This document shows positions 9,273 through 23,162 of a DNA stretch of 64,000 bases, piece by piece. Below the pieces are notes generated by a model. It ran no database searches and was not told the origin of the DNA. It saw only the letters and a program-made list of their open reading frames with translations. A program made the translations under genes and the position numbers. Numbering within the stretch: the first letter of the stretch is position 1; each line of letters starts with the position of its first letter. Where the stretch lies: assembly GCF_988243305.1 (NCBI RefSeq), contig NZ_OZ547136.1. The stretch is one strand, 5' to 3'.

Positions 9273-9839
9273 TCAGAAGTGAGGGTTACGAGGACGCCCT
9301 GCAGCAGGACGTTCAGGAACTTCATTGCAGCCGTAGGCACACAGCCCGTCTTTTTGCTCTTCTTTTGCCAGATAATGCAGGGCACCGCGAATATTATCGA
9401 TGCTTTCAGGATCGTTGTGGCGCACAGGAATGTTGATGTTGTATGTATAATGCGGCTGATATGTACAGCGGTGTGCCGAACCGCTGTTATGTGTAATAGA
9501 CCGCCAGCATTCCGTAATCCGCTCCGCAAAGGGATATATTTTTTTAACCCTCTGACGATCGATCCACAAAACCGCATGCGCATGAAAACCATGATCAGCC
9601 GTCCATTCAATCACCCAGAAGAAACCAACGATATTTTCAAATTGTTCCACCTGCTCCAGCAGCATACGCAACTGCAATTCAAGCCAGCGATGATCAGGTT
9701 GTAAGAAATCGGGCGTATCTTTCCTGTAGAAGAAATCCATCCGTAAGGCCCGCAGGCAGGAATAGCGTGCCATCATTTGATTGATGTGATTGTCAAGTAA
9801 AGCGGTAAAAAACCAGTTTGGTGTGTAAGATTTAGGCAT
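9273..9839 (-). CDS. YfjJ/YagK-like (inovirus Gp2 family) island protein
   Basis: 188 aa; HxH motif (FHAHAVLWIDRQ) as in Gp2-like proteins; adjacent paralogue at 8440-9015. Confidence 0.45.
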   Translation of the reverse strand: MPKSYTPNWFFTALLDNHINQMMARYSCLRALRMDFFYRKDTPDFLQPDHRWLELQLRMLLEQVEQFENIVGFFWVIEWTADHGFHAHAVLWIDRQRVKKIYPFAERITECWRSITHNSGSAHRCTYQPHYTYNINIPVRHNDPESIDNIRGALHYLAKEEQKDGLCAYGCNEVPERPAAGRPRNPHF

Positions 9840-10671
9840 GTTGATGACTCCTGAAAGTTAATGATGTTTTAAGCTCTGTGAACGAATTAATGCTTTCGCT
9901 CATAACGGTAATAACTTACAGATGGTATTTATCAGGCATGCTGTAGCAGAATGGATACGACGGGTTATTAACGATACGCAGCATTATGCAGAAAGAAATG
10001 GATTATCTGATGGTATTAGCTAAAGAGATGAGATAAACGAGGAGTAAAGAAAATACAGACTCAATAAAACATCACGAAATACTGTAAAATACGAGCTAAA
10101 ACCCCACTACCTGGAGATTAAGAAACATATTGCGACCAATCACATCATAAACTACAAACTTGCTCTCAGTGAGTCTGCAAAAACGTGTACAAGGCCAACA
10201 CATATCTGTAACCTGATAAAATCATACACTCTCATTTAATCTGTTAAAAACAACTCACTTCAAAACATGAGCGTTAACGGGTACACGGTACCAGAATAAA
10301 ATATACCATGGATGGATAATTTTCATTTTGTTTAACATACAAGATAATCAGAAACGAACAAATATAATCAGGAATTCACTCTGTTAATTTCATTGTTTAT
10401 CCTGCGCTGTTAAACATGACGAAATCATGGATACCTTATCAAAGAGTAAACATCCAGTTAATCAGTGATGACAGAAGTATTGATATTTACCAGAATAGTT
10501 AAAACACTTCAGGTCAACAACAATCATCGTTAAGTCAATACAGTTCATTATGGATAATGACTAAAATCAATTGCTGTTTCAGTGAAGACTGATAACAGGT
10601 AGATATTAGCAACAACGTAGTAAAATAACTTATCTGAGTATCGTATGAATTACAGTAGTTATGATTGAATG

Positions 10672-10721
10672 AAGGAGAAGGTGGAGAAGGTGGAGAAGGT
10701 GGAGAAGGTGGAGAAGGTGGA
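10672..10721. repeat. Tandem repeat, 9-bp unit GTGGAGAAG, about 5.5 copies
   Basis: Direct read: (g/a)aggagaag then gtggagaag x4 then gtgga; embedded in a purine-rich plus strand within a 1.3 kb AT-rich non-coding region. Confidence 0.9.
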
Positions 10722-11157
10722 TACCATGATAATGGTGGCAATGAAGATTAGACAAGGAAGGGAGTAAGTATAATCGGGTGAGGGTCAGAGTAATGGAATG
10801 AGTAAAGATAGAGAGTAAGTAAAAACAGAGTGAATAAAGACAAAGTGAATATAATTATAGTAATAAACCTAAATTAAAAATACTTGCGTATAATGGAAAG
10901 AAATAAGAATTAAGAATAGCGTATGAGTCGTAGTCATGACCTGGCTACAAAAAGTCATTCCATCTGGCTGTCATTCAGACACACTCCCCAAACATTCGAC
11001 TACAAAGTACTAACAGAAAATTAACTGATGTATTATTCTTCTGCCCTGAATGAACATCCGGAAGTATAATCTCCCCTAGCTTCACGTTCACCGGGAAAAA
11101 CGAAGCTATTTACTTTGATGATCGCTGACGAAAAACCGAACAGGCAGTTGCATAATC

Positions 11158-12252
11158 ATGGACAACAGAGAAAAAGAGATACTCAGGATCCTGCGTCACA
11201 ACCCACTGATCCAGCAGAATGAAATTGCTGAGATTTTACAAATCAGTCGGTCGCGTGTTGCTGCACACATTATGGATCTGATGCGCAAAGGTGCGATTAA
11301 AGGGAAAGGCTACATCCTGACAGAACAGGAATACTGTGTTGTTCTTGGGGCGATTAACATGGATATCCGTGGGGTGGCGGATATCCATTATCCACAGAAA
11401 TCCTCCAGTCCGGGCAGTATTTACTGCTCTGCCGGAGGTGTCGGACGCAACATCGCCCATAATCTCGCCCTTCTGGGCCGCAATGTGCATCTGATATCTG
11501 CTGTAGGCAATGATTTTTATGGCGAAACATTACTGGAGCAGACCCGCCTGGCCGGCGTTAATGTCACCAATTGTATTCGACTGAACGGACAAAATACTTC
11601 AACTTATGTCTCCATCGCCGACCTACAGGCAGAAACAGTGATGGCGATTAATGATACCCATATTCTGCAACAACTGACGCCGCAGTTGCTGGACGCCTCA
11701 CGTATGTTAATCCGTCACGCTGGCGTGGTGCTGGCTGACTGTAATCTGACACCTGCCGCCCTTGAATGGATCTTTACGGTCGCTGACGGCATTCCCGTTT
11801 TTATTGATACAGTGTCGAAATTTAAGGCTGTTAATGTAAAAAACTGGCTTCCGCATATCCATACCCTGAAACCCACACAAAAAGAACTGGAGATATTATG
11901 GGGTTCCCCTGTCAACAATGAGACCGATCTACTCACCGCAGTGAACGCACTACATCAGCAGGGTGTGCAACAGATTTTTGTCTGGATGGGAGATGAATCC
12001 GTTTTCTGTAGCCAAAGAGAGGGAGAACAATTTCTGCTCACACCGCCCGTTCATGCCGTTGTGGACAGCTTTGGTGCAGATGATGGCTTTATGGCAGGTC
12101 TGCTTTACAGTTTTCTGGAAGGAAGTAGTTTCCAGGAAAGTGCTCACTTTGCGATGGCATGTGCAGCACTGTCACGTGCCAGCACCAGCATCAATAACCC
12201 AACACTTTCCGTTAATAACGCGCAATATCTGTTAAAAACATCCCGGGGGTAA
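11158..12252 (+). CDS. YeiI-like protein: N-terminal winged-helix HTH fused to a PfkB-family sugar kinase domain
   Basis: 364 aa; N-terminal HTH (ILRILRHNPLIQQNEIAEILQISRSRVAAHI), PfkB motifs (GGVGRNIAHNLALLG; DSFGADDGFMAG). Confidence 0.65.
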   Translation: MDNREKEILRILRHNPLIQQNEIAEILQISRSRVAAHIMDLMRKGAIKGKGYILTEQEYCVVLGAINMDIRGVADIHYPQKSSSPGSIYCSAGGVGRNIAHNLALLGRNVHLISAVGNDFYGETLLEQTRLAGVNVTNCIRLNGQNTSTYVSIADLQAETVMAINDTHILQQLTPQLLDASRMLIRHAGVVLADCNLTPAALEWIFTVADGIPVFIDTVSKFKAVNVKNWLPHIHTLKPTQKELEILWGSPVNNETDLLTAVNALHQQGVQQIFVWMGDESVFCSQREGEQFLLTPPVHAVVDSFGADDGFMAGLLYSFLEGSSFQESAHFAMACAALSRASTSINNPTLSVNNAQYLLKTSRG

Positions 12253-12270
12253 CACCCGGGATTGTATTTT

Positions 12271-13521
12271 TTATGCCAGCCCAATGAAAAAACCAGCGAT
12301 AGTCGCACTCATCAGGTTTGACAGGGTGGCCGCCGCCAGTGCACGCATGCCCAGTTGTGCAATTTCAGGTGCACGCTGAGGTGATATGGCTGAAAAGGCA
12401 CCCACCACCACACCAATGGAGCCAAAGTTGGCAAAACCACACAGTGCAAAAGAAATAATTGCGGTGGTTTTCACATCAAGCGTACTGCCTGGCTGTAAAT
12501 AGGGTGAAAGATTGAGATAAGCAACAAATTCGTTAATTGCCAGCTTCTGACCAATCAGACTTCCTGCCAGTGAAGCATCCGCCCAGTCAACGCCCATGAT
12601 CCACGCAAGGGGAGCCAAAATCCAGCCGAAAATGCCCTCAAGGGTAATATTACCATAACCAAACCAGCCTCCGATACCACCGATTATACCGTTAATCAGA
12701 GCAATAATAGCAACAAAGGTCATCACTACCGTTGCAACTCCGACAGCGATTTTCAACCCGGTCATCGCCCCGCTGGCCACTGCTTCAATAACACTTTTGG
12801 GAGGAGTATCAGTGAAAGAAAGATTTTCAAAAGTGACTTTTGATTCTTCTGTGGCCGGACTCAGAATACGGGCAAAAAGGATCCCCCCCGGGATCGCCAT
12901 CAACGACGCCGCCAGCAAATAGTCAATCGGAACCCCCATCCCGGCATAGCCGATCATCATTGAACCGGCAATCGAAGCCATCCCACTGCAGATGACAGTA
13001 AATAATTCATTACGATTCAGACGATTAATAAACGGTTTTACAATTGCCGGGATCTCGTTTTGCCCCAGGAAAATTGTCGTTACTGCCACAAATGACTCAA
13101 CTTTACTTATGTTCAGAGCTTTCTGAAAAATCCCCCCCAGAATACGGATAAGCCCCCCCATCACTCTGATGTAGTACAGCAGACTGATAAGCGCTGTAAC
13201 AAAAATGATGGCAGGAAGTACACGGAAGGCGAAGATAAAACCCGCCCCATCGAACAGTACGTCCATTTTGTCCCCTACCAGAGAGCCAAAAATAAAGGCA
13301 CTGCCCGCATCACTGTAAGACATAATTTTATGTACGCCCAGTGCAGCCTGTTCAACCAGCCATTTCCCCGGGGGGAAATAGAGCATGATCCCACCAATCG
13401 CGATTTGAAGAACCAGTGCAGCTCCTGTGGTACGTAAACTGATACGTTTTTTATTCACTGATAGTAGAAATGCAATTATCAGCAATACTGCCATTCCCAC
13501 TATACTTCTCATGATGTCCAT
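12271..13521 (-). CDS. psuT: NupC-family nucleoside transporter (PsuT/YeiM-like)
   Basis: 416 aa polytopic membrane protein with NupC-like sequence; position next to psuG/psuK. Confidence 0.65.
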   Translation of the reverse strand: MDIMRSIVGMAVLLIIAFLLSVNKKRISLRTTGAALVLQIAIGGIMLYFPPGKWLVEQAALGVHKIMSYSDAGSAFIFGSLVGDKMDVLFDGAGFIFAFRVLPAIIFVTALISLLYYIRVMGGLIRILGGIFQKALNISKVESFVAVTTIFLGQNEIPAIVKPFINRLNRNELFTVICSGMASIAGSMMIGYAGMGVPIDYLLAASLMAIPGGILFARILSPATEESKVTFENLSFTDTPPKSVIEAVASGAMTGLKIAVGVATVVMTFVAIIALINGIIGGIGGWFGYGNITLEGIFGWILAPLAWIMGVDWADASLAGSLIGQKLAINEFVAYLNLSPYLQPGSTLDVKTTAIISFALCGFANFGSIGVVVGAFSAISPQRAPEIAQLGMRALAAATLSNLMSATIAGFFIGLA

Positions 13522-13604
13522 AATGCTCTCCCCTTATACCTGAACCAGACACGGAATCTGGTTCAGGTAATTTCGGGCGACCTCACACTGCCCGTTCATT
13601 TATA

Positions 13605-14540
13605 TCAGACAATTTGTTGATATTCTTTTGCTATCTCACAGGCCAGAACTGCGTTGTTGAATACCAGCTGAATATTTGATTTCAGACTGTCACCACCGGT
13701 TAATTCTGCCACCCGTGCCAGCAGGAACGGTGTGCTTTCTTTACCGGTAATGCCCTGCACTTCCGCTTCTTTTACGGCCTGGTCAATTGCTGCATTAATT
13801 TTCTCTTCCGCCATGGCGTAAGCTTCCGGAATCGGATTGGCAACAACCAGACCACCGTTCAGGCCGGTTTGCCATTTCACTGCCATCGCGCGGGCAATCT
13901 CTTTTGCACTGTCCAGACGTATACTGACCTCAAACGGACTGGTGCGGCAAAAAAATGCCGGCAATGATCTTGTCTGATAGCCAATTAAAGGTACACCAAA
14001 TGTTTCTAAATATTCCGTGGTTAACCCTAAATCGAGAATGGATTTCGCGCCTGCACAAACCACGGTGACATTAGTATGTGCCAGTTCCTGTAGGTCGGCT
14101 GAAATATCAAAAGTGTGTTCTGCACCGCGATGAACGCCGCCAATTCCTCCTGTGGCAAAAACTTTAATTCCGGCAAGAGCAGCAATAATCATGGTTGAAG
14201 CTACCGTTGTTGCACCATGTTTTCCTTCAGCAATAACGAAAGGTAAATCCCGGCGACTGACTTTGGTAACGTTATGTCCTTCGCGACCCAGTAATTCAAT
14301 CTCATCTTTACTTAACCCGACTTTCATTACACCGCCAATAACGGCAATGGTGGCTGGTACTGCTCCGTGTTTACGTATAGTTTCTTCGACTTCAATAGCC
14401 GTCTGAGCATTCTGAGGAAAAGGCATACCATGTGAGATAATTGTTGACTCGAGAGCAACAACAGGTTTTTTACTGTTAATGGCATCCTGTACTTCCGGTG
14501 AAATTTGCAGTAATTCAGAAGAAATGGTTATTTCAGACAT
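13605..14540 (-). CDS. psuG: Pseudouridine-5'-phosphate glycosidase (PsuG/YeiN, IndA-like)
   Basis: 311 aa; close to E. coli YeiN by memory (…VVALESTIISHGMPFPQN…GGIGGVHRG…). Confidence 0.7.
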   Translation of the reverse strand: MSEITISSELLQISPEVQDAINSKKPVVALESTIISHGMPFPQNAQTAIEVEETIRKHGAVPATIAVIGGVMKVGLSKDEIELLGREGHNVTKVSRRDLPFVIAEGKHGATTVASTMIIAALAGIKVFATGGIGGVHRGAEHTFDISADLQELAHTNVTVVCAGAKSILDLGLTTEYLETFGVPLIGYQTRSLPAFFCRTSPFEVSIRLDSAKEIARAMAVKWQTGLNGGLVVANPIPEAYAMAEEKINAAIDQAVKEAEVQGITGKESTPFLLARVAELTGGDSLKSNIQLVFNNAVLACEIAKEYQQIV

Positions 14541-15468
14541 TCTGTTTCTCCACTAAGCTTTTAACGTTAGCAACAGATAATTCAGGATTATTGGTATACT
14601 CACTGGCCAGCGCCATTGATGAACACCCCTGTGCAAATCGAATGGAATCAATAAATGGCATATTATCAACCCAGCAGGAAGCCAGCCCTGCCATCATGGC
14701 ATCCCCTGCCCCCGTAACGTTCACCACCTGTGTTTTTACTGGCGGCGACCAGCCGCTGGCTCCGTACAGTTCGCTGTAATAAACTCCATCCCCCCCCATG
14801 CTGAGCACAAGGCGATTCAGACCATGTGTATGGAACCATACCGCCACTTTTTCAGCATCATTCCGATCTGAAAGCGAAATACCACTGAGTGTTTCTGCTT
14901 CAAGCCGGTTGGGCTTGAGAGTATGAATTTGTGCTAAATGTTCACGAATTTTGACACACTTCCATGCAGATACCGGGTCAACAAATACCGGAACCTTACC
15001 TGCATTATTCAGTAGCCAGACAAGTGTTGACTCACTGATATTACAGTCTGCAACAATAACCTTCGCTCCCTGAATAAAATCAATATGCTGTGATAAAAAC
15101 TCAGCTGAAATATGTTCACTAATCGTCATGTCATTTATTGCCACCAACATTTCACCGGTTTTATCGAGAAGTGATAAATAACTTGAGGTATTTTCTCCAT
15201 TAACAATCAGACATTTATCAACATTAACGCCGGACTGAGTCGTTTGTGCTAATAATGATTGCCCGTAGAAATCATCTCCCACAGCTGACATCAGCCATGA
15301 GTTTTTACCCAGCAGAGCAAGATTATGTGCAATATTACGCCCCACACCTCCGGGCGTGAATTTAATCTTCCCCGGGTTAGAATCAGCATAATTTAAGGAG
15401 GCATACGAATATCCGGCTATATCTATATTGGCAGAGCCAATTGTGATGATGTATTCCTTATCACACAT
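14533..15468 (-). CDS. psuK: Pseudouridine kinase (PsuK/YeiC, PfkB family)
   Basis: 311 aa from MCDKEY with RBS aggag; PfkB motifs GGVGRNIAHNLALLG and GAGDAMMAG; overlaps psuG start by 8 nt. Confidence 0.7.
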   Translation of the reverse strand: MCDKEYIITIGSANIDIAGYSYASLNYADSNPGKIKFTPGGVGRNIAHNLALLGKNSWLMSAVGDDFYGQSLLAQTTQSGVNVDKCLIVNGENTSSYLSLLDKTGEMLVAINDMTISEHISAEFLSQHIDFIQGAKVIVADCNISESTLVWLLNNAGKVPVFVDPVSAWKCVKIREHLAQIHTLKPNRLEAETLSGISLSDRNDAEKVAVWFHTHGLNRLVLSMGGDGVYYSELYGASGWSPPVKTQVVNVTGAGDAMMAGLASCWVDNMPFIDSIRFAQGCSSMALASEYTNNPELSVANVKSLVEKQNV

Positions 15469-16003
15469 GGCACATCTCCTGACATTTAAAAACACAAAAA
15501 TAATAAATCTGTATTTCTATTCGACCACGCAGATAGAGTTGAACATATATTCAAAATCAAACATGTGTTCACTTTATGCCTGTTTTTAGAAATGTAAATA
15601 CCAGTCCAGAATCAAAAAGTGAAAAATGAAAACAGGATCACAATTTTTATCGTTAATCCATGTTGTCCTTATCCGGTTTTATGGCGTTGCCCTGTTTCAT
15701 CAGGTTATTTGCATGAACGGAATAAATACCGGAGATGACAGGAAACACCATAAGATATTCAGGATGTTACGATGAATTTCATGAGGATCGCTAAAAATGA
15801 GCCTGTTTAATAATTTTATGCAAACACCTTATACCAGGGCTTCCCTTCGGAGATATCAATGACCCCGACAGCGCTCTCACTGCCCTGGTTGCTGGTTTCC
15901 GATATCCTCTTAACTTGCAGGCTCATCCCGCATTTCACTCATGGTGAATAAGGCACATAATGGTCTGGAGTCAATTCTGGCTTACGATTTGTAAATATAA
16001 TAA

Positions 16004-16456
16004 TTAAAGCGTTCTCAAAAGTCTGGCTGGATTACCGGCATACACGCCTTTTACCAGCACGGGCTTTGTAACCACACTACCAGCCCCAATCACTGCTCCA
16101 CTGCAAATTTCTGTTGTTAAAATAGTCGCTCCGCTACCCACTGTTACAGTGTTACCTAATACGATACGTATCCAGCTTTCTGCAGAGGCATCGGGACCAC
16201 CACACTTAAAAAGATCATTAGCAAAAGTTACGCCATGACCGATGAAACAGCCATCACCTAAAATGACGTTCTCACAGATGAAACTGTGGGACTGAATTCG
16301 GCTCCGCTTGCCAATGATGCATCCCTTCTGTATTTCCACAAAGGGACCGATAAAAACATCATCCCCCAGTTCACATTCATAGAGGTTTACTGGCATGACG
16401 ACTTTCACATTTTCACCAAATTTCACATCACGAATGCCGCTGTTAATAACGTGCAT
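16004..16456 (-). CDS. Hexapeptide-repeat (left-handed beta-helix) acyl/acetyltransferase
   Basis: 150 aa with repeated [LIV]G-x-x-x-x hexapeptides (IGKRSRIQSHSFICENVILGDGCFIGHGVTFAND...VTVGSGATIL). Confidence 0.55.
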   Translation of the reverse strand: MHVINSGIRDVKFGENVKVVMPVNLYECELGDDVFIGPFVEIQKGCIIGKRSRIQSHSFICENVILGDGCFIGHGVTFANDLFKCGGPDASAESWIRIVLGNTVTVGSGATILTTEICSGAVIGAGSVVTKPVLVKGVYAGNPARLLRTL

Positions 16457-16976
16457 ATCCGTTGTATCCTCCCTCAGGATGATTCTTATCAGAACATTTC
16501 ACCTGTCAGAATATTCCCGGTAATGCGATACAAGATCCTGTCTCACCGGGTACCACGTGTTATTGCCCGTATCCTTTTGCCCGTTACGAGTGTACAACCG
16601 GTTTTGTATTTTGCAATCCAGGCCTGTTACACCAGAGCATCCTCCCACTGCCCCCTCACTGCTCAGTCCGGGATTCAAAGTCATCTTCCAGCACTAAACC
16701 TCATACCAGTTCTGAACCTTCCCTCGCCAGCAGTCAGGATCGTACGGTTCACCACTATCCTCTTCCGTGAATGGCAGTAAGTGAGCAGCACCAAAATAAA
16801 TCGGTACTTCCAATGACAGACAGTGAAAGTGTAAGGGGAAATATGAACATGAGAATGGAAGCAGATAAAAATACCGTTTCATGACTTCAGGGCGATTATC
16901 AGAAAACGAGCTAAGGGCGTCAGCCAACGTCCTGACCGTGGTATACGCTCAGGCACCGGATGCTGTTTTACCGGGT

Positions 16977-17708
16977 TCACCTGCCATCCAGTAGACGCCC
17001 CGGCCCACGACTGCAACCATAATTACGTTGCCCGGAACCGTCATGCTGCTTCGTCTCATATTTCACGAGATAACTGGCTCTGTTCCGGGCTTTCTGCAGC
17101 GCTTCCACATCACCACGCTTGATCCAGAGCACAGCGGCTTCACCTGGCTTTTTGTCTGAAGCCTTCCTGGTATCAGAACATCCACCCGACAAAGGCGTGT
17201 CATCGGAAGAAGGGCGAGCATCAGACGATGTCGGTTTACGGGAAGGCGTCCACCTGGAAAAATGGACCAGGCCATCGCCTTGCCAGGGCTCAAGATGCAG
17301 GGCGCTGCACCATGCCTCCTGGATCATCGTCGCCAGCGAAGACGGTTCGCTGAAATCCCCGAGCGAGCACCAGGTATCTTTGTTGAGCAGTAATATCACG
17401 TGATAATGTTTCCTGCCATACATCTTGCCGAACTCCCGGCACCAGAAATAACGCAGGCTGGTTGCATGCACACGCTGATTGGCCCATCTTTTTTTCCGCT
17501 GGTAAGCCTGAATTTTGGCTTTCAGGGATGCGAAAAAACGGGAAATCACCGCTGAATCCGGATCGGGATCCATGATGGTGACAGGCATATACTCAGGGAA
17601 ACGTAAATCCACCCGGATTAACGAGACGGCACGGTGTTGCACCAGGGCACTGTTGAGAATACTTTCAAAACGGGATAACCAGTAATCATTGTGTATTGGT
17701 TGATTCAT
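16977..17708 (-). CDS. YfjJ/YagK-like (inovirus Gp2 family) island protein, third paralogue
   Basis: 243 aa; HYHVILLLNKDTW motif; resembles the proteins at 8440 and 9273. Confidence 0.45.
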   Translation of the reverse strand: MNQPIHNDYWLSRFESILNSALVQHRAVSLIRVDLRFPEYMPVTIMDPDPDSAVISRFFASLKAKIQAYQRKKRWANQRVHATSLRYFWCREFGKMYGRKHYHVILLLNKDTWCSLGDFSEPSSLATMIQEAWCSALHLEPWQGDGLVHFSRWTPSRKPTSSDARPSSDDTPLSGGCSDTRKASDKKPGEAAVLWIKRGDVEALQKARNRASYLVKYETKQHDGSGQRNYGCSRGPGRLLDGR

Positions 17709-18377
17709 GATGAGAGATCTCCGTTGATTTGGATTGACTTCACATCATTAATCACTGCGGTAAAACTTTACGGCATCCCGCCATTGAGCAACGCCAATGG
17801 CTCCTGATTAAAACAGAATGAATCGTCCCGTAACGAAAAGATAATCCTGCACACGACAGCAAAACGTAAAACAACAGCATGAATGAGCTAAATGTCTAAA
17901 GAAAAACTGCCTTTTCACATTATTTTTCAGCGAGTAATCATACCAGCATCCCTAACATACGAAATCGCATCGTGATCGATCGCTGATTCGCCGAACAACT
18001 GATCGAATACACCGGAATCTGCACTAACATCCTGATGGGTAACGGAAGACTAAAAAACCAGTGTTCTATTGATTGCACGGAATGCCTGTGCGCTGGCCTG
18101 ACCAGTAAGCACAATTCTACGAGTAGTAAGATATCTACTCCAAAACCATGCGCAGTAGCCACCATATGTTGCCAGGGTGAAAAATAAGCTCAGAGCTATA
18201 GGGGAGTAATTCCCGTTAATGTCATCGCCGTACCTCAATCAGCTCACAAACTGGCTGAAACGTTAAGCTGAGGCCTTTATTCTTCAGATGTATTTTCCGG
18301 TTTACCTGTAAATTATCTTCTGATATTTATCACATTAGTAATTGTGCTGATTATCTACATACTTCAAGGTCTGAAAT

Positions 18378-18908
18378 ATGAAGCTAACAGAAGAAAGTCT
18401 GAATCTAGTCATTGACATCCTGAATGATTTGATCTGTGAAGGAAAAATGCTGAACGATGTGGAGCGCAGATCTCTGCTCAATGCAGTTATGGCAATTACA
18501 GCGGTAAAAGAACGTTCTGTCGTATCTGTATCATCCCGAAAAGAGCAAAGTAAGAAGGAGAAGAAGGAAAGAGAGATCGATCCTCGTTTCCCAAATGCTG
18601 GTGTGGCATGGAATGAGGCAGACGAGAGTTTATTGCGAGATGTTCTGGAGGATGTACCGGACGATGAAATTGGTAAACACCTTTTCTGGCTAGCAGAGAA
18701 ACTAGGGCGAACCCCGTACAGTGTAGCCTGTAAAGTCAGACAAATTAAGAAATTACCTGCAGAATGGAAGGATCAATTTCGTAAAATCTCTGACAGGATC
18801 CGTAGTTCTGGAATGTCAGTCAGTGAATATCTACAACGCCAGGGACTGTTAAGCCCAGAGTCAGGGGAAGAAAACAATCCTGTCAGTCATAACAACAATG
18901 TAGCTTAA
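18378..18908 (+). CDS. Hypothetical protein, 176 aa, lysine/glutamate-rich linker
   Basis: ORF on coding-like sequence bounded by AT-rich non-coding DNA; no recognisable motif. Confidence 0.45.
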   Translation: MKLTEESLNLVIDILNDLICEGKMLNDVERRSLLNAVMAITAVKERSVVSVSSRKEQSKKEKKEREIDPRFPNAGVAWNEADESLLRDVLEDVPDDEIGKHLFWLAEKLGRTPYSVACKVRQIKKLPAEWKDQFRKISDRIRSSGMSVSEYLQRQGLLSPESGEENNPVSHNNNVA

Positions 18909-20070
18909 TCCTGAAGAAGATGAACAGTTTATACTCTTTAAACTGTTCCCTTAATTTTAGAAAAACAGTTTGTGTAAGTGCATGCTCCAACATTCTGAAG
19001 GCGTTATTTCTTACAATACATCATAATCATTGGCAGATCCTCATCTGAATCAAAACACCACAACCAATCATCACACTTTTTCTGAAAAGAGCCTTATGAT
19101 GAAGATAATCACCTTACGCTGAGAAAAAACACCAGGGCCAGTTAATCACCTTATCAATCTCGCCGTTACAAAATCATCCATAAGCCATTTAACAGTGTTA
19201 TCGCAAACTCACAGTAAATCGCATCAGGTTACCTCAATCGGATTTGAGTTAATTCACTGGGCTTTACGTAAAGATACTTTTCTCAGGTTAACGACTAAAA
19301 CACGAAAACTCAGAAAAGGTTAAACACAGGTTCAGTAAAATCGAATATCATCTTGATTGCTTAAACAGGACAGAGGGTTTTGTAGTGAGGTTAACTGATT
19401 TTAGCGATCGTAAAAAAAGGACTAACAAATTTACTAAACTGGATGTGTTTCAGACAAAGCAATGTGTACAGCAATGCTTAATGAAAATACTTGTATGATT
19501 GTCTATGAAAATGCGTGTATAACACTTAGTGAAGATATGTCTGTATAATACGTATATAGTACCATTCCCGACATTCTCAATATCTTCAGACATCCATGCA
19601 GACTGAGTGTTGATTTCAGTTTTTCACGGCCAGCATGGATCTTTACTGGTCAAAAAACAGACAGGTTTACTCTGGAATTATTTTTTTGATTCCGTCTTCA
19701 GAACAACAAAAACTCGTGATAACTCTACAACAAACTATCGTAATTGGCTTCTGTAACCCCGTCACTTTTCCTAAGAAACGTGCCCCCATATGATGCGGGA
19801 GAGATAAGTCATCGTATACAGGAAACACTGCCAATCATAATATGGCGTCATTCAGTAATTTTTATCCATAATCAGATTAGCATATCATGATTATTGAATA
19901 TTATGATATATAGCTCATATGAATGTGTTATTATCTGTAAGCGTTAAGCATCACATTGCATAACCATACTAAGCTGGCTAATCATCAACATTTTTATATG
20001 TAACTCATTGAAATTAATTATATGTTTTTTGTGAATAATTAATATGTAATGTGAAATTAATATTTTTACA

Positions 20071-21294
20071 TCATGAGCGCCATTTAAAATTACCATCCTG
20101 AATATCATATGACAATATATTTTCACTAAAGCATGAATTGTATATGTCTATTAACTCTGGAAAATTATCAGGATTCACCTTCAAATTCACTTGAATGTTA
20201 CGCTTAATTTCACCCAGCAGTTCTTCATGTGTGGATTTTATTATCCCTTTCTCATAATCGATAAATACACACATGTTCTTTATGAATTCAAAACCTTTTC
20301 CTGTATACAGTTTAATGAATGCCACCAGAGCAAACATTTCAAGATATAGCCATAATGCCACGTTAGTTTTTTGCAAAGTATAAAAAATTGAATTCGCCAC
20401 TCTTTTACTTATTGCTCTTTTATACTGTGATCGAGCAAGATTCAGTAGCGGAAGCTCTCGTTCAATAAATGAATGTGAAAAGACTGGATAAATTGATGTA
20501 GGAAACCTTTCAGGTCTTATGATATTTTCTATTTCCACCATAAATCTATCCATAGAAAGAAAGTCACTTTCTTTTTTTATTCTGGTATAGAGACCGCCTT
20601 TATTTCTTTCTGAGGTTTGTTTTCGTGCTATCCCCCCCAACACTTTCTCTAATTGTTTATTTATCTTCGTATAATTAAATACAACCATTCTTCTTATCAT
20701 CCTCGGAAGGATAATAATATCAGTGCTTGAATCACTTGAGCGGCAATTATTATTTATCCATGCAACTTCAAGTTGCAGTATCGGAACATTAACTTTTCTG
20801 GGGTGAATATCTCTCTGATATCGTTTTTTGTATGCGTTTTCATTAAGATATTCTCTGCTGTAGAGAAACTTATAGCAATATAATCTGATAATATCTTTTA
20901 TGTAAAATTTAAATAGTTCACCTGTAACAGATATATGTTTTCTGCTCAGTAACTCCTGTGTATTAAGCCATTCCCGTGACCGAAGCACACCCTTGTGAAA
21001 ACTTTTTCTTACTTGCTTTGAAGCACGCCATTGATGTAATATTTTTGCGTCCTCAATAATTCTCTTTCCCGTTTTATTTTTTGCAGCATCTCTTACTCTA
21101 TAAAATATCTCCCAGTCCAGACTTTTGTCATATCTACTAATTATACGACAAATATTCCTGACCCGACGATTCTCTTTATTTCGCTTCCATAGCTTATAAT
21201 GATCATCGCATAACCTTAAGGCATTTGCCTCATCAAATTCTGAAACAGGATTACTGCATTTTTTATTCCGACAGATACCTTTGTTTTTAGCCAT
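20071..21294 (-). CDS. Hypothetical basic protein, 407 aa, N-terminal Cys/His cluster (CRNKKCSNPV...CDDH), very AT-rich gene
   Basis: Long uninterrupted ORF in AT-rich DNA, divergent from the GTPase gene; no family recognised. Confidence 0.5.
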   Translation of the reverse strand: MAKNKGICRNKKCSNPVSEFDEANALRLCDDHYKLWKRNKENRRVRNICRIISRYDKSLDWEIFYRVRDAAKNKTGKRIIEDAKILHQWRASKQVRKSFHKGVLRSREWLNTQELLSRKHISVTGELFKFYIKDIIRLYCYKFLYSREYLNENAYKKRYQRDIHPRKVNVPILQLEVAWINNNCRSSDSSTDIIILPRMIRRMVVFNYTKINKQLEKVLGGIARKQTSERNKGGLYTRIKKESDFLSMDRFMVEIENIIRPERFPTSIYPVFSHSFIERELPLLNLARSQYKRAISKRVANSIFYTLQKTNVALWLYLEMFALVAFIKLYTGKGFEFIKNMCVFIDYEKGIIKSTHEELLGEIKRNIQVNLKVNPDNFPELIDIYNSCFSENILSYDIQDGNFKWRS

Positions 21295-21394
21295 ACTCTT
21301 CTTCCCGTCAATGGAAAAATTTTCACACCCATATTACCTGAATGATAAACCGGATTAGTGTGATCCGGTTCAGTGAAATCAACAGGATACCGGT

Positions 21395-22279
21395 ATGCCA
21401 TTCAGCAATTCTTCCCTCTCCGCGCAAGTGAAATCATATCTGACGTTTCTTCCTGAAGAAATTCGCCAGAAAATCCTTGAACATCTCCACGGTGTTATTC
21501 ATTACGAGCCCGTGATTGGCATTATGGGTAAATCCGGCACCGGCAAAAGCAGTCTGTGTAATGCCATTTTTCAGTCCCGTATCTGCGCCACGCATCCCCT
21601 GAACGGCTGCACCCGCCAGGCTCATCGCCTCACCCTGCAGATTGGTGAACGCAGAATGACGCTGGTCGATCTGCCCGGCATTGGTGAGACACCGCAGCAT
21701 GATCAGGAATACCGGGAGCTTTACCGTCAGTTACTGCCGGAACTGGATCTGATTATCTGGATCCTGCGGGCTGATGAACGTGCGTATGCTGCCGATATTG
21801 CCATGCATCAGTTTTTACTGAATGAAGGTGCAGATCCCTCGCGTTTTCTGTTTGTTCTCAGCCATGCCGATCGCGTGTTTCCTGCTGAAGAATGGAATGC
21901 CACAGAAAAATGCCCATCCCGTCACCAGGAACTCTCACTGGCAACTGTTACAGCCAGGGTGGCAACCCTGTTCCCGTCATCATTTCCGGTACTCCCCGTT
22001 GCTGCGCCTGTCGGCTGGAATCTTCCGGCGTTTGTGTCGCTGATGATCCACGCCCTGCCACCGCAGGCAACCAGTGCGGTTTATTCACATATCCGGGGGG
22101 AAAACCGCTCTGAACAGGCCCAGAAACACGCACAACAGACTTTTGGTGACGCCATCGGGAAAAGTTTTGACGACGCCGTTGCCCGGTTCACTTTTCCGGT
22201 CTGGATGTTACAGCTTCTGCGTAAAGCCCGGGACCGCATTATCCGCCTGCTAGAAACACTGTGGGATCGTCTGTTCTGA
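21395..22279 (+). CDS. YeeP/YfjP/YkfA-family GTPase (CP4-type island)
   Basis: 294 aa; P-loop GIMGKSGTGKSSL and DLPGIGE motif. Confidence 0.7.
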   Translation: MPFSNSSLSAQVKSYLTFLPEEIRQKILEHLHGVIHYEPVIGIMGKSGTGKSSLCNAIFQSRICATHPLNGCTRQAHRLTLQIGERRMTLVDLPGIGETPQHDQEYRELYRQLLPELDLIIWILRADERAYAADIAMHQFLLNEGADPSRFLFVLSHADRVFPAEEWNATEKCPSRHQELSLATVTARVATLFPSSFPVLPVAAPVGWNLPAFVSLMIHALPPQATSAVYSHIRGENRSEQAQKHAQQTFGDAIGKSFDDAVARFTFPVWMLQLLRKARDRIIRLLETLWDRLF

Positions 22280-22481
22280 CACACTCACGCCGACAGGATG
22301 TGTCGCTGGATTAATGAGTATTCTTCTTTTTATGAAATCATCATTAAAAATCAGATAATTAAAGGAATATTTTTTCTGCTGCATTTTATTCCTGATTATT
22401 CAGATACGACACATCCTTTCAACACCATGAGGCATAATAACATCATGAAATAAAAGATGTTTTCTTACGGAGTGCACATCT

Positions 22482-23162
22482 ATGTCTGATAATCGTTCCC
22501 GGCATGATCGCCTGGCGGTTCGCTTATCACTCATTATCAGCCGACTGATGGCCGGAGAATCTCTGTCACTAAAAACACTGTCAGATGAATTTGGCGTTAC
22601 AGAACGTACTTTACAGCGCGATTTTCATCAGCGTCTGGTTCACCTGGATTTAGAGTACAGAAATGGCAGGTACAGCCTCAGACGACAGAGCAGCCCAGGT
22701 GCGATCCCTGAAATGCTTTCTTTTATACAGAATACCGGGATCGCACGGATACTTCCGCTCCGGAACGGACGACTGATAACCTGTCTTACCGACAACCAGG
22801 AGCCCTCTCCCTGCCTTATCTGGCTACCGGCGCCGAATATCACTGCAACGTTCCCCGAGTGTTTCTCGCAACTCATCCTGGCAATAAGACAGTGTATCCA
22901 CATCTCTCTGATGACTGAGCGATGGTATCCGTCACTGGAGCCCTGCCGGCTCATTTATTACAGCGGTAGCTGGTATCTGATCGCGTTACAGAAGGGAAAA
23001 CTGCAGGTCTTTCCTCTGGCAGATATCAAATCAGTCAGCCTGACATCAGAACGGTTTGAACGGAGAGGCCACATCCACAGTCTGGTCGCTGAAGAGCGTT
23101 TTATCTCCGCCCTGCCACATTTCTCTTTCATCCATAAACTTATCAACACCTTTAACCTGTGA
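22482..23162 (+). CDS. WYL-domain transcriptional regulator (YfjR-like)
   Basis: 226 aa; N-terminal HTH (LKTLSDEFGVTERTLQRDF), C-terminal WYL-like (YYSGSWYLIAL). Confidence 0.6.
   Translation: MSDNRSRHDRLAVRLSLIISRLMAGESLSLKTLSDEFGVTERTLQRDFHQRLVHLDLEYRNGRYSLRRQSSPGAIPEMLSFIQNTGIARILPLRNGRLITCLTDNQEPSPCLIWLPAPNITATFPECFSQLILAIRQCIHISLMTERWYPSLEPCRLIYYSGSWYLIALQKGKLQVFPLADIKSVSLTSERFERRGHIHSLVAEERFISALPHFSFIHKLINTFNL

Follow-up and report, generated by a model that had tools for sequence, protein, structure and literature searches.

The AT-rich block considered here occupies positions 17709-21394 of the analysed stretch of DNA (64,000 nucleotides, referred to below as the window) and belongs to a CP4-type integrative island of Escherichia coli. 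It contains two intact open reading frames (ORFs), one of 407 amino acids (aa), called X in this text, and one of 176 aa; both were described in the original prediction as unannotated, and their coordinates and the RefSeq 'hypothetical protein' entries agree with that description. The 407-aa gene is a real gene constrained by purifying selection, islands exchange it as a cassette whose borders are fixed, and it looks like a conserved gene of the island backbone, not like interchangeable defence cargo. Motif and model evidence supports the descent of the X family from HNH nucleases, and the window protein is most likely a nuclease-dead derivative of them. As a tentative proposal, held with somewhat less than even confidence, X may act as a non-catalytic DNA-binding regulatory or specificity factor of the island. 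The 176-aa gene, which had been grouped with X in one module, is unrelated to it and independent of it. The coordinates of all features are collected in Table 1.

Cassette exchange at a fixed island position

The position of X can be defined from what varies and what remains constant around it. In each of the five loci compared, homology between the window and islands carrying an X of the 376-aa or 310-aa type breaks off at 19684-19688 and starts again at 21320. Because it stops and resumes at the same points in every comparison, X is concluded to be swapped as a cassette. The 376-aa occupant, as in CFT073, was aligned with X by hhalign with a probability of 99.9% (E = 2e-31), and the 310-aa occupant, which lacks the zinc ribbon, with a probability of 96.6% (E = 7e-10). 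All slot occupants found in E. coli (407, 376 and 310 aa) are therefore homologous to one another, and no unrelated gene was found in the sampled variants. With a same-family homologue in every sampled island variant, the slot does not resemble a defence hot spot filled with unrelated cargo. The identity between X types is about 20%, while the adjoining GTPase genes are 87-100% identical and their alleles do not follow the X type. The 75 bp proximal to the GTPase are likewise about 95-100% identical between X types that share about 20% identity.

The abundance of the types was determined in 5,426 complete E. coli genomes. The GTPase subtype gave 2,506 matching places (in 1,870 genomes), X407 1,068, the X310-like type 822 and X376 516; the three X types sum to 2,406, which is near one per GTPase locus, the counts coming from independent searches and adjacency having been checked in about a dozen loci. 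X adjoins GTPase, WYL or AlpA genes in 12 of the 12 distinct contexts examined, which were taken from E. coli, Klebsiella, Citrobacter, an unclassified Enterobacteriaceae genome and unassigned metagenome contigs, and in every one of them X is located where the alpA/yfjJ module meets the operon led by the GTPase or WYL gene. In E. coli, K. michiganensis and Citrobacter it is divergent from the GTPase gene at a distance of 95-184 bp; in the window the two starts (21294 and 21395) are 100 bp apart, exactly as had been estimated. At three loci (L006, L026, L027) X is divergent from the WYL gene. Tandem arrangements of AlpA-X-GTPase (L018) and AlpA-X-ParM-like (L019) were also observed, and at one locus (L005) X lies a short way behind the integrase. 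In Klebsiella, Citrobacter and L026 the genes that come after X are alpA and the Rep-like yfjJ. Where the surroundings are readable, they are integrase/AlpA-type chromosomal elements.

The 407-aa gene was found in 975 of the 5,426 genomes with an identity of 91-100%, and it is near full length in 967 of these. It is intact in four E. coli alleles covering the same identity range, and the ratio of nonsynonymous to synonymous substitution rates (dN/dS) is 0.24-0.27 in the informative comparisons (about 0.26). Homologues with 33-37% identity keep 80 invariant residues along with the same gene neighbourhood; C8, C13, C29 and H32 are among these residues, as are those of the segments SREWxNTQEL, SREYL, LEV, IRRMV, LPL and YNSxFS. 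The description of both proteins as orphans did not hold, since both have families: 68 homologue clusters for the 176-aa protein and, for X, 43 representatives in a set of 1.84 billion proteins and 16 clusters at 90% identity in one of 5.8 billion. Neither protein is homologous to a housekeeping or a phage-structural protein.

The X family is rare and narrow in its distribution. The named organisms of its members are all Enterobacterales, bar one probably contaminated assembly, and so is every relative in AFDB. The island (X, WYL, AlpA, YfjJ) in the record titled Chryseobacterium sp. 18061 (L027) is almost the same as the one in Enterobacteriaceae bacterium RIT691, and the Chryseobacterium assembly is probably contaminated or mislabelled. 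A scan of 100,044 species-representative genomes with the alignment of the nine closest full-length members (A1) returned two loci of the window clade only. Foldseek with the X model retrieved family members alone from AFDB50 and no match from BFVD, and searches of PDB sequences with the profiles A1 and A3 gave no match. The 407-aa protein has no family in Pfam (empty even at E = 10), NCBIfam, PADLOC or PHROG. In the literature no paper mentions the protein accessions, and the publications on yeeP/yfjP/ykfA and on island hot spots gave nothing specific.

The 310-aa type in E. coli MS 69-1 (L017, 6333-8071) is accompanied by a second gene of 269 aa, placed tail to tail with it so that the 3' ends overlap by 4 bp. 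A 223-aa version of this partner occurs in L016 (6289-9363), with an IS3 element between both genes. The 269-aa partner has no family match except for a weak one to the IncL/M RepC model (E = 0.002).

HNH ancestry and possible role of X

The AlphaFold2 model of the 407-aa protein built from the 32-sequence alignment (A2) reached a predicted local distance difference test (pLDDT) of 82 and a predicted template modelling score (pTM) of 0.70; it replaced an earlier model from nine sequences (pLDDT 56), which was discarded. The predicted structure has a Cys/His knuckle at the N-terminus; besides helical regions it contains a β-β-α unit, and a helical domain modelled with confidence forms the C-terminal part. 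The N-terminal cluster had been reported as CxxC...C...H; its actual spacing is C8-x4-C13-x15-C29-x2-H32, and its four residues are invariant in the nine closest full-length members and at least 90% conserved across the 32 sequences.

The β-β-α unit gains its significance from a distant branch of the family. Clade II consists of 15 sequences with the motif LEvCHxYPNSxGGxNxxxNxIIAPxxINR, the His and Asn residues of which are invariant. A profile of this motif (60 columns) matched 11 PDB sequences at E < 1, all of them HNH nucleases aligned at the catalytic motif: McrA ('LEVHHVIPLSSGGADTTDNCV'), Cas8f-HNH, IscB, Cas9 and chains named 'HNH nuclease domain-containing protein'. The E-values of 0.18-0.93 make each of these matches weak alone. 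Weak library matches of clade II over the same motif were obtained with Pfam HNH_4/HNH_5 (E = 0.013-0.04) and with Cas9d (E = 0.02-0.03), no Pfam or NCBIfam HNH model was significant on any X member, and distant members are named 'HNH endonuclease' in UniProt. The agreement of all PDB matches, together with the weak HNH_4/HNH_5 and Cas9d matches and the UniProt names, supports a descent of the X family from HNH nucleases. In the model of the 407-aa protein the ββα fold of the HNH (ββα-metal) superfamily is predicted at the position of the motif, and it is this degenerate core that had escaped the original prediction, in which no recognisable motif was seen.

The residues on which catalysis depends differ between the clades. 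At positions 179, 192 and 201, clade II has H, N and N, the CFT073-type clade has S/K, a variable residue and K, and the window clade has W/F/Y/K, D and R. The catalytic His at the end of the first strand (the general base) is thus absent from the window protein, which has W179, and the Asn before or in the second strand and the metal-binding Asn/His of the helix are replaced by D192 and R201. Because the catalytic positions H, N and N are occupied by W, D and R, the window protein is most likely nuclease-dead, and the 407-aa protein as an active HNH nuclease is not supported.

If X acts as the proposed regulatory or specificity factor, it would no longer cut DNA and would bind it through the zinc ribbon and the dead HNH core. 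It would control or license either the operon headed by the GTPase or the adjacent alpA/yfjJ module, the extreme divergence of its alleles would reflect different signals or targets, and X would form part of the backbone machinery of the island. The regulatory half of the original prediction stands as the most plausible reading for both proteins.

Several points weigh against this proposal. DNA binding, regulation and the loss of nuclease activity are predictions for X, and the HNH link depends on a short motif with individual E-values of 0.18 or worse. The near one-to-one ratio of X to GTPase relies on separately obtained counts and on adjacency seen in about a dozen loci, and the extreme allelic divergence fits an arms-race (defence) function as well. 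Moreover, the 75-bp intergenic stretch is conserved across X types, and a type-specific operator is not evident there. Because these 75 bp are shared and X310 has no zinc ribbon, a type-specific repressor with its own operator at the promoter is not indicated. Within the stretch, ATATTACC at 21331-21338 is invariant across E. coli, Klebsiella and Citrobacter, and a hairpin CCGGAT-n7-ATCCGG at 21350-21368 has a compensatory counterpart in Citrobacter (L004), CCTGGC-n7-GCCAGG; its folding is just marginally better than that of shuffled sequence (z = -1.5).

It is somewhat unlikely, but deserves weighing, that X is a diversifying anti-phage or exclusion gene fixed in the backbone, acting alone or together with the YfjP-type GTPase as its variable sensor or effector. 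The presence of three allelic types, about 20% identical to one another, between flanks of 87-100% identity is typical of arms-race loci; X and the GTPase form a pair in most contexts, divergent or in tandem; and the C-terminal part of the GTPase (residues 185-289) matches the PADLOC LeoBC model of the Eleos system (E = 4e-7). In K-12 CP4-57 the equivalent interval, from yfjJ to yfjP, contains the defence systems RnlAB and AbpAB. Defence cargo is also carried by related islands (PMC12595487). However, PADLOC-DB v2.0 (E <= 0.01), which dates from 2023 and does not cover later systems, contains no family for the 176-aa, 407-aa, 310-aa and 269-aa proteins or for ten distant X members, so that no X type or clade has a model, and the 407-aa protein gave no tblastn match in 50,697 phage and 72,556 plasmid records. 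The slot is always filled by the same family in the sampled loci and not by unrelated systems, the nuclease triad is lost in the E. coli clades, X is also found without the GTPase, the GTPase alleles are independent of the X type, and the dN/dS of about 0.26 within the 407-aa type gives no overall sign of positive selection. A defence role for X is not supported, and the phage-defence or abortive-infection reading proposed at the outset has found no positive evidence.

It is also possible, but unlikely, that X belongs to the replication, mobilisation or packaging machinery of the island, the ancestral HNH protein having been a nickase at a cognate site and the dead E. coli versions being site-specific accessory DNA-binding proteins. 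One candidate target would be the iteron-like element at 19040-19685. The gap in which it lies had been called non-coding, and it is indeed unannotated but not inert, as this element is conserved in 1,652 genomes. The element occurs in more genomes than any one X type and is 71-99% identical beside completely different X cassettes. It contains a variable-copy cluster of direct repeats (CTTANTRAA / ACACTTAsTrAAA, also given as AAAACACTTAGTA), some of them about 25 bp apart, with a copy number ranging from 1 to 5: two copies in the window (19477 and 19525) and five in L016. Any reading frame across it is broken by indels whose lengths are not multiples of 3, Rfam gave no match to it, and, lying beside the Rep-like yfjJ gene, it may be an origin or an array of operators.

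In favour of such machinery, clade II retains the intact HNH triad and its genes have alpA directly before them and the integrase nearby, alpA and Rep-like yfjJ come next after X in Klebsiella, Citrobacter and L026, the repeat element lies between X and yfjJ, and each cassette includes several hundred bp of type-specific non-coding DNA. On the other side, the clades prevailing in E. coli have lost the catalytic residues, the repeat element is constant across X types and does not vary with them, and islands of this kind are not known to replicate or transfer on their own. Furthermore, no consistent operator or repeat motif was found downstream of X in different genera. A 22-bp AT-rich tandem repeat (20009-20061, 2.5 copies, consensus TGAAATTAATTATATGTAATG) adjoins the 407-aa gene directly past its stop codon, and no such repeat was found behind X in other genera.

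A rather improbable variant of these ideas regards X as a module for sensing or specificity that is hypervariable, originates from a dead HNH nuclease and is swapped as a cassette in front of a near-invariant YfjP-type GTPase operon. If this were true, each X allele would recognise a different invader or helper (a phage protein or DNA) and would switch on an immune or exclusion response encoded by the backbone, or the induction of the island. It would amount to a previously unrecognised arrangement of a 'variable receptor plus constant effector' in those complete E. coli genomes, about one third of all, in which this type of GTPase gene is present.

A reading of the two ORFs as decaying or functionless remnants, in island DNA that is AT-rich and silenced by H-NS, is hardly credible and largely refuted: the 33-34% guanine-cytosine (GC) content, the missing functional annotation and the insertion sequence (IS) elements found in the neighbouring gap of some strains would fit it, but 967 of 975 genomes have the 407-aa gene at nearly full length, its dN/dS is about 0.26, homologues of 33-37% identity keep its 80 invariant residues and its neighbourhood, 668 of 670 genomes have the 176-aa gene at an identity of 99% or more and its family is kept on 2,960 plasmids, and no frame disruption was seen in either ORF.

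The 176-aa gene and the island around the block

The 176-aa and 407-aa genes are not one module, because the cassette that carries the former is missing from many islands that keep the latter. The 176-aa gene was detected in 670 complete E. coli genomes as compared with 975 for the 407-aa gene; in the islands L007 and L009, which have the 407-aa gene and not the 176-aa gene, the alignment shows about 290-330 bp of other sequence at the position of the cassette. The 176-aa family also occurs independently of any X gene, both on K. pneumoniae plasmids and in a small chromosomal insert beside folD in Klebsiella oxytoca and related species. The terminator-like hairpin behind the 176-aa gene fits a stand-alone transcription unit.

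Members of this family were found on 2,960 of the 72,556 plasmids, mainly from Klebsiella (mostly IncF), and two-thirds of these plasmids are conjugative. On both plasmids inspected, the gene is within a few genes of hha. These are IncF plasmids, one from Klebsiella and one from E. coli (L024, 8001-9144, and L025, 8001-8756), in which the gene lies directly upstream of hha (HHA-domain) or one gene off it. The proximity to hha suggests a link of the 176-aa family to the nucleoid-associated silencing functions of plasmids. Several of the homologue clusters carry the unverified NCBI name 'DNA-binding protein', and the conserved core of the family (alignment A4) reads DPRFPNAG-x-W…HLFWLAEKLGRTPYSVACK. 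Nothing significant was found for the 176-aa protein in Pfam, NCBIfam, PADLOC, PHROGs or PDB. Weak matches were obtained with PHROG 323, 'transcriptional regulator, D5-like' (E = 0.003-0.07 in three of six members), and with Pfam NikA-like (E = 0.025). The core looks like a Myb/SANT-type helix-turn-helix, a likeness that no profile search returned, and the 176-aa protein is putatively a stand-alone DNA-binding protein of a kind typical of mobile elements, brought in on the optional cassette.

Table 1. Features of the block and of its immediate neighbours, in window coordinates
Feature	Position	Strand	Basis and remarks
YfjJ/YagK-type gene ('inovirus Gp2 family', Rep-like)	16977..17708	-	RefSeq annotation and PHROG replication-initiator matches; left conserved neighbour
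Optional 1.15-kb cassette with the 176-aa gene	17885..19039		blastn breakpoints 17852/17885 and 19039
176-aa gene	18378..18908	+	RefSeq 'hypothetical protein'; WP_000778605 / WP_001107219 given jointly for the 176-aa and 407-aa genes
Terminator-like hairpin	18922..18948	+	14 nt past the stop codon of the 176-aa gene
Conserved non-coding element	19040..19685		matches in 1,652 of 5,426 genomes, never annotated
Allelic X cassette	19685..21319		407-aa gene with flanks of about 385 bp (3') and about 25 bp (5')
407-aa gene (X)	20071..21294	-	RefSeq 'hypothetical protein'
HNH-like core, residues 175-219	20638..20772	-	predicted model: β 175-179, β 193-197, α 198-219; local confidence 86-96
Cys/His cluster, codons C8, C13, C29, H32	21199..21273	-	putative zinc ribbon; local model confidence 91-93
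Conserved divergent intergenic part	21320..21394		common to all X types (alignment A5 and homology borders)
GTPase gene, YfjP-family	21395..22279	+	heads the conserved operon of the island

The gap between the two genes, predicted at about 1.1 kb, measures 1,162 bp (18909-20070). It has no RefSeq annotation and holds a single ORF of at least 60 aa, which is 60 aa long and overlaps the 407-aa gene at its end. In three genomes (23AR0303 and two others) ISEc35, an IS5-like element, is inserted in this gap, and therefore at least part of it tolerates disruption. The gap was also considered as the site of a decayed alpA, a gene that follows X in Klebsiella and Citrobacter; this candidate was rejected, as tblastn with two AlpA proteins gave a best E of 0.15. 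The description of the block as very AT-rich is right for the 407-aa gene (33% GC) and the gap (34%) but not for the 176-aa gene (43%), the value for the whole window being 49%. No known RNA was detected in 16500-22500 (no Rfam match at E <= 1). Repeats over 17600-21500 were unremarkable, and promoter-like sites were fewer there than in shuffled sequence.

The assignment of the block to an island slot beside a YfjP/YeeP-type GTPase agrees with the CP4-type island annotation. An identical copy of the region is present in the annotated record of E. coli NCTC86, in which a gene of the 'inovirus Gp2 family' (YfjJ/YagK, Rep-like) is followed by the hypothetical genes of 176 aa and 407 aa and by the GTPase, then by a WYL regulator, DUF905, DUF932, antirestriction, RadC/JAB, DUF987, CbeA/CbtA and DUF4942, and lastly by an integrase fragment adjoining cadC. 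The operon led by the YfjP-family GTPase runs GTPase-WYL-…-DUF932-antirestriction-RadC-CbeA/CbtA. The yfjJ-type gene on the other side is about 90% conserved between island variants. Two yfjJ/yagK-type genes flank a block of metabolic cargo at about 9300-17700 of the window (11583-20000 of L001), which includes a sugar kinase, a nucleoside transporter, a pseudouridine glycosidase and kinase, the latter frameshifted in NCTC86, and an acyltransferase; this block looks like a cargo insertion that duplicated the Rep-like gene. In Pseudomonas islands, an integrase, AlpA, a Gp2-like protein and RadC were described in a 2025 study as the likely core, with defence cargo (PMC12595487). That study agrees with the general picture, though X is not described in it.

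Meaning and comparison with known systems

CP4-type islands are common in E. coli, the GTPase subtype alone being present in 1,870 of 5,426 complete genomes, and one position of their backbone now has a defined, unnamed family of traceable origin, an HNH nuclease that has lost its catalytic residues. Its evolutionary pattern is unusual, with alleles of about 20% identity swapped between fixed borders beside nearly identical flanks, and it offers a handle on the regulation or mobilisation of the island and on the role of the YfjP-type GTPase. The outcome also advises caution against labelling every unannotated gene of an island slot as a defence gene.

Among known proteins, HNH nucleases (McrA, the HNH domains of Cas9/IscB and Cas8f-HNH) come closest to X and resemble it in the motif of clade II, LEvCH-x-YP-x3-GG-x-N-x3-N-x-IIAP-x2-IN, and in the β-β-α unit predicted at the homologous place of the window protein. 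As in many HNH proteins, the motif is accompanied by a putative zinc-binding Cys/His cluster. In X, however, this cluster is about 140 residues upstream and not around the ββα core, and the helical C-terminal domain of about 200 residues is without a counterpart.

The defence interval yfjJ-yfjP of CP4-57 and the P4-like hot spots are comparable in that they represent the same kind of island and the same interval, with defence systems nearby in related islands (PMC12595487). Hot spots of this type hold unrelated systems from strain to strain, whereas the slot studied here has an X homologue in every sampled variant and no match to a defence model.

The nearest relatives of the 176-aa protein are the plasmid 'DNA-binding protein' genes beside hha on IncF plasmids (Klebsiella, Enterobacter), with 50-64% identity over 89% of the length and the same conserved core DPRFPNAG…W…WLAEKLGRTPYSVACK. 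The window gene differs in standing alone, with neither hha nor other plasmid genes beside it.

The master regulators of satellites and islands, such as Stl of the Staphylococcus aureus pathogenicity islands (SaPI), provide the last comparison. SaPI Stl is a master regulator that is transcribed divergently from the main operon. X has no sequence or fold similarity to regulators of the Stl type and no helix-turn-helix, and the intergenic DNA it shares with the GTPase stays constant whatever the X type. It resembles them in position only: it is located at a fixed place of the backbone, divergent from the first gene of a long conserved operon, and is far more divergent between related elements than its neighbours are.

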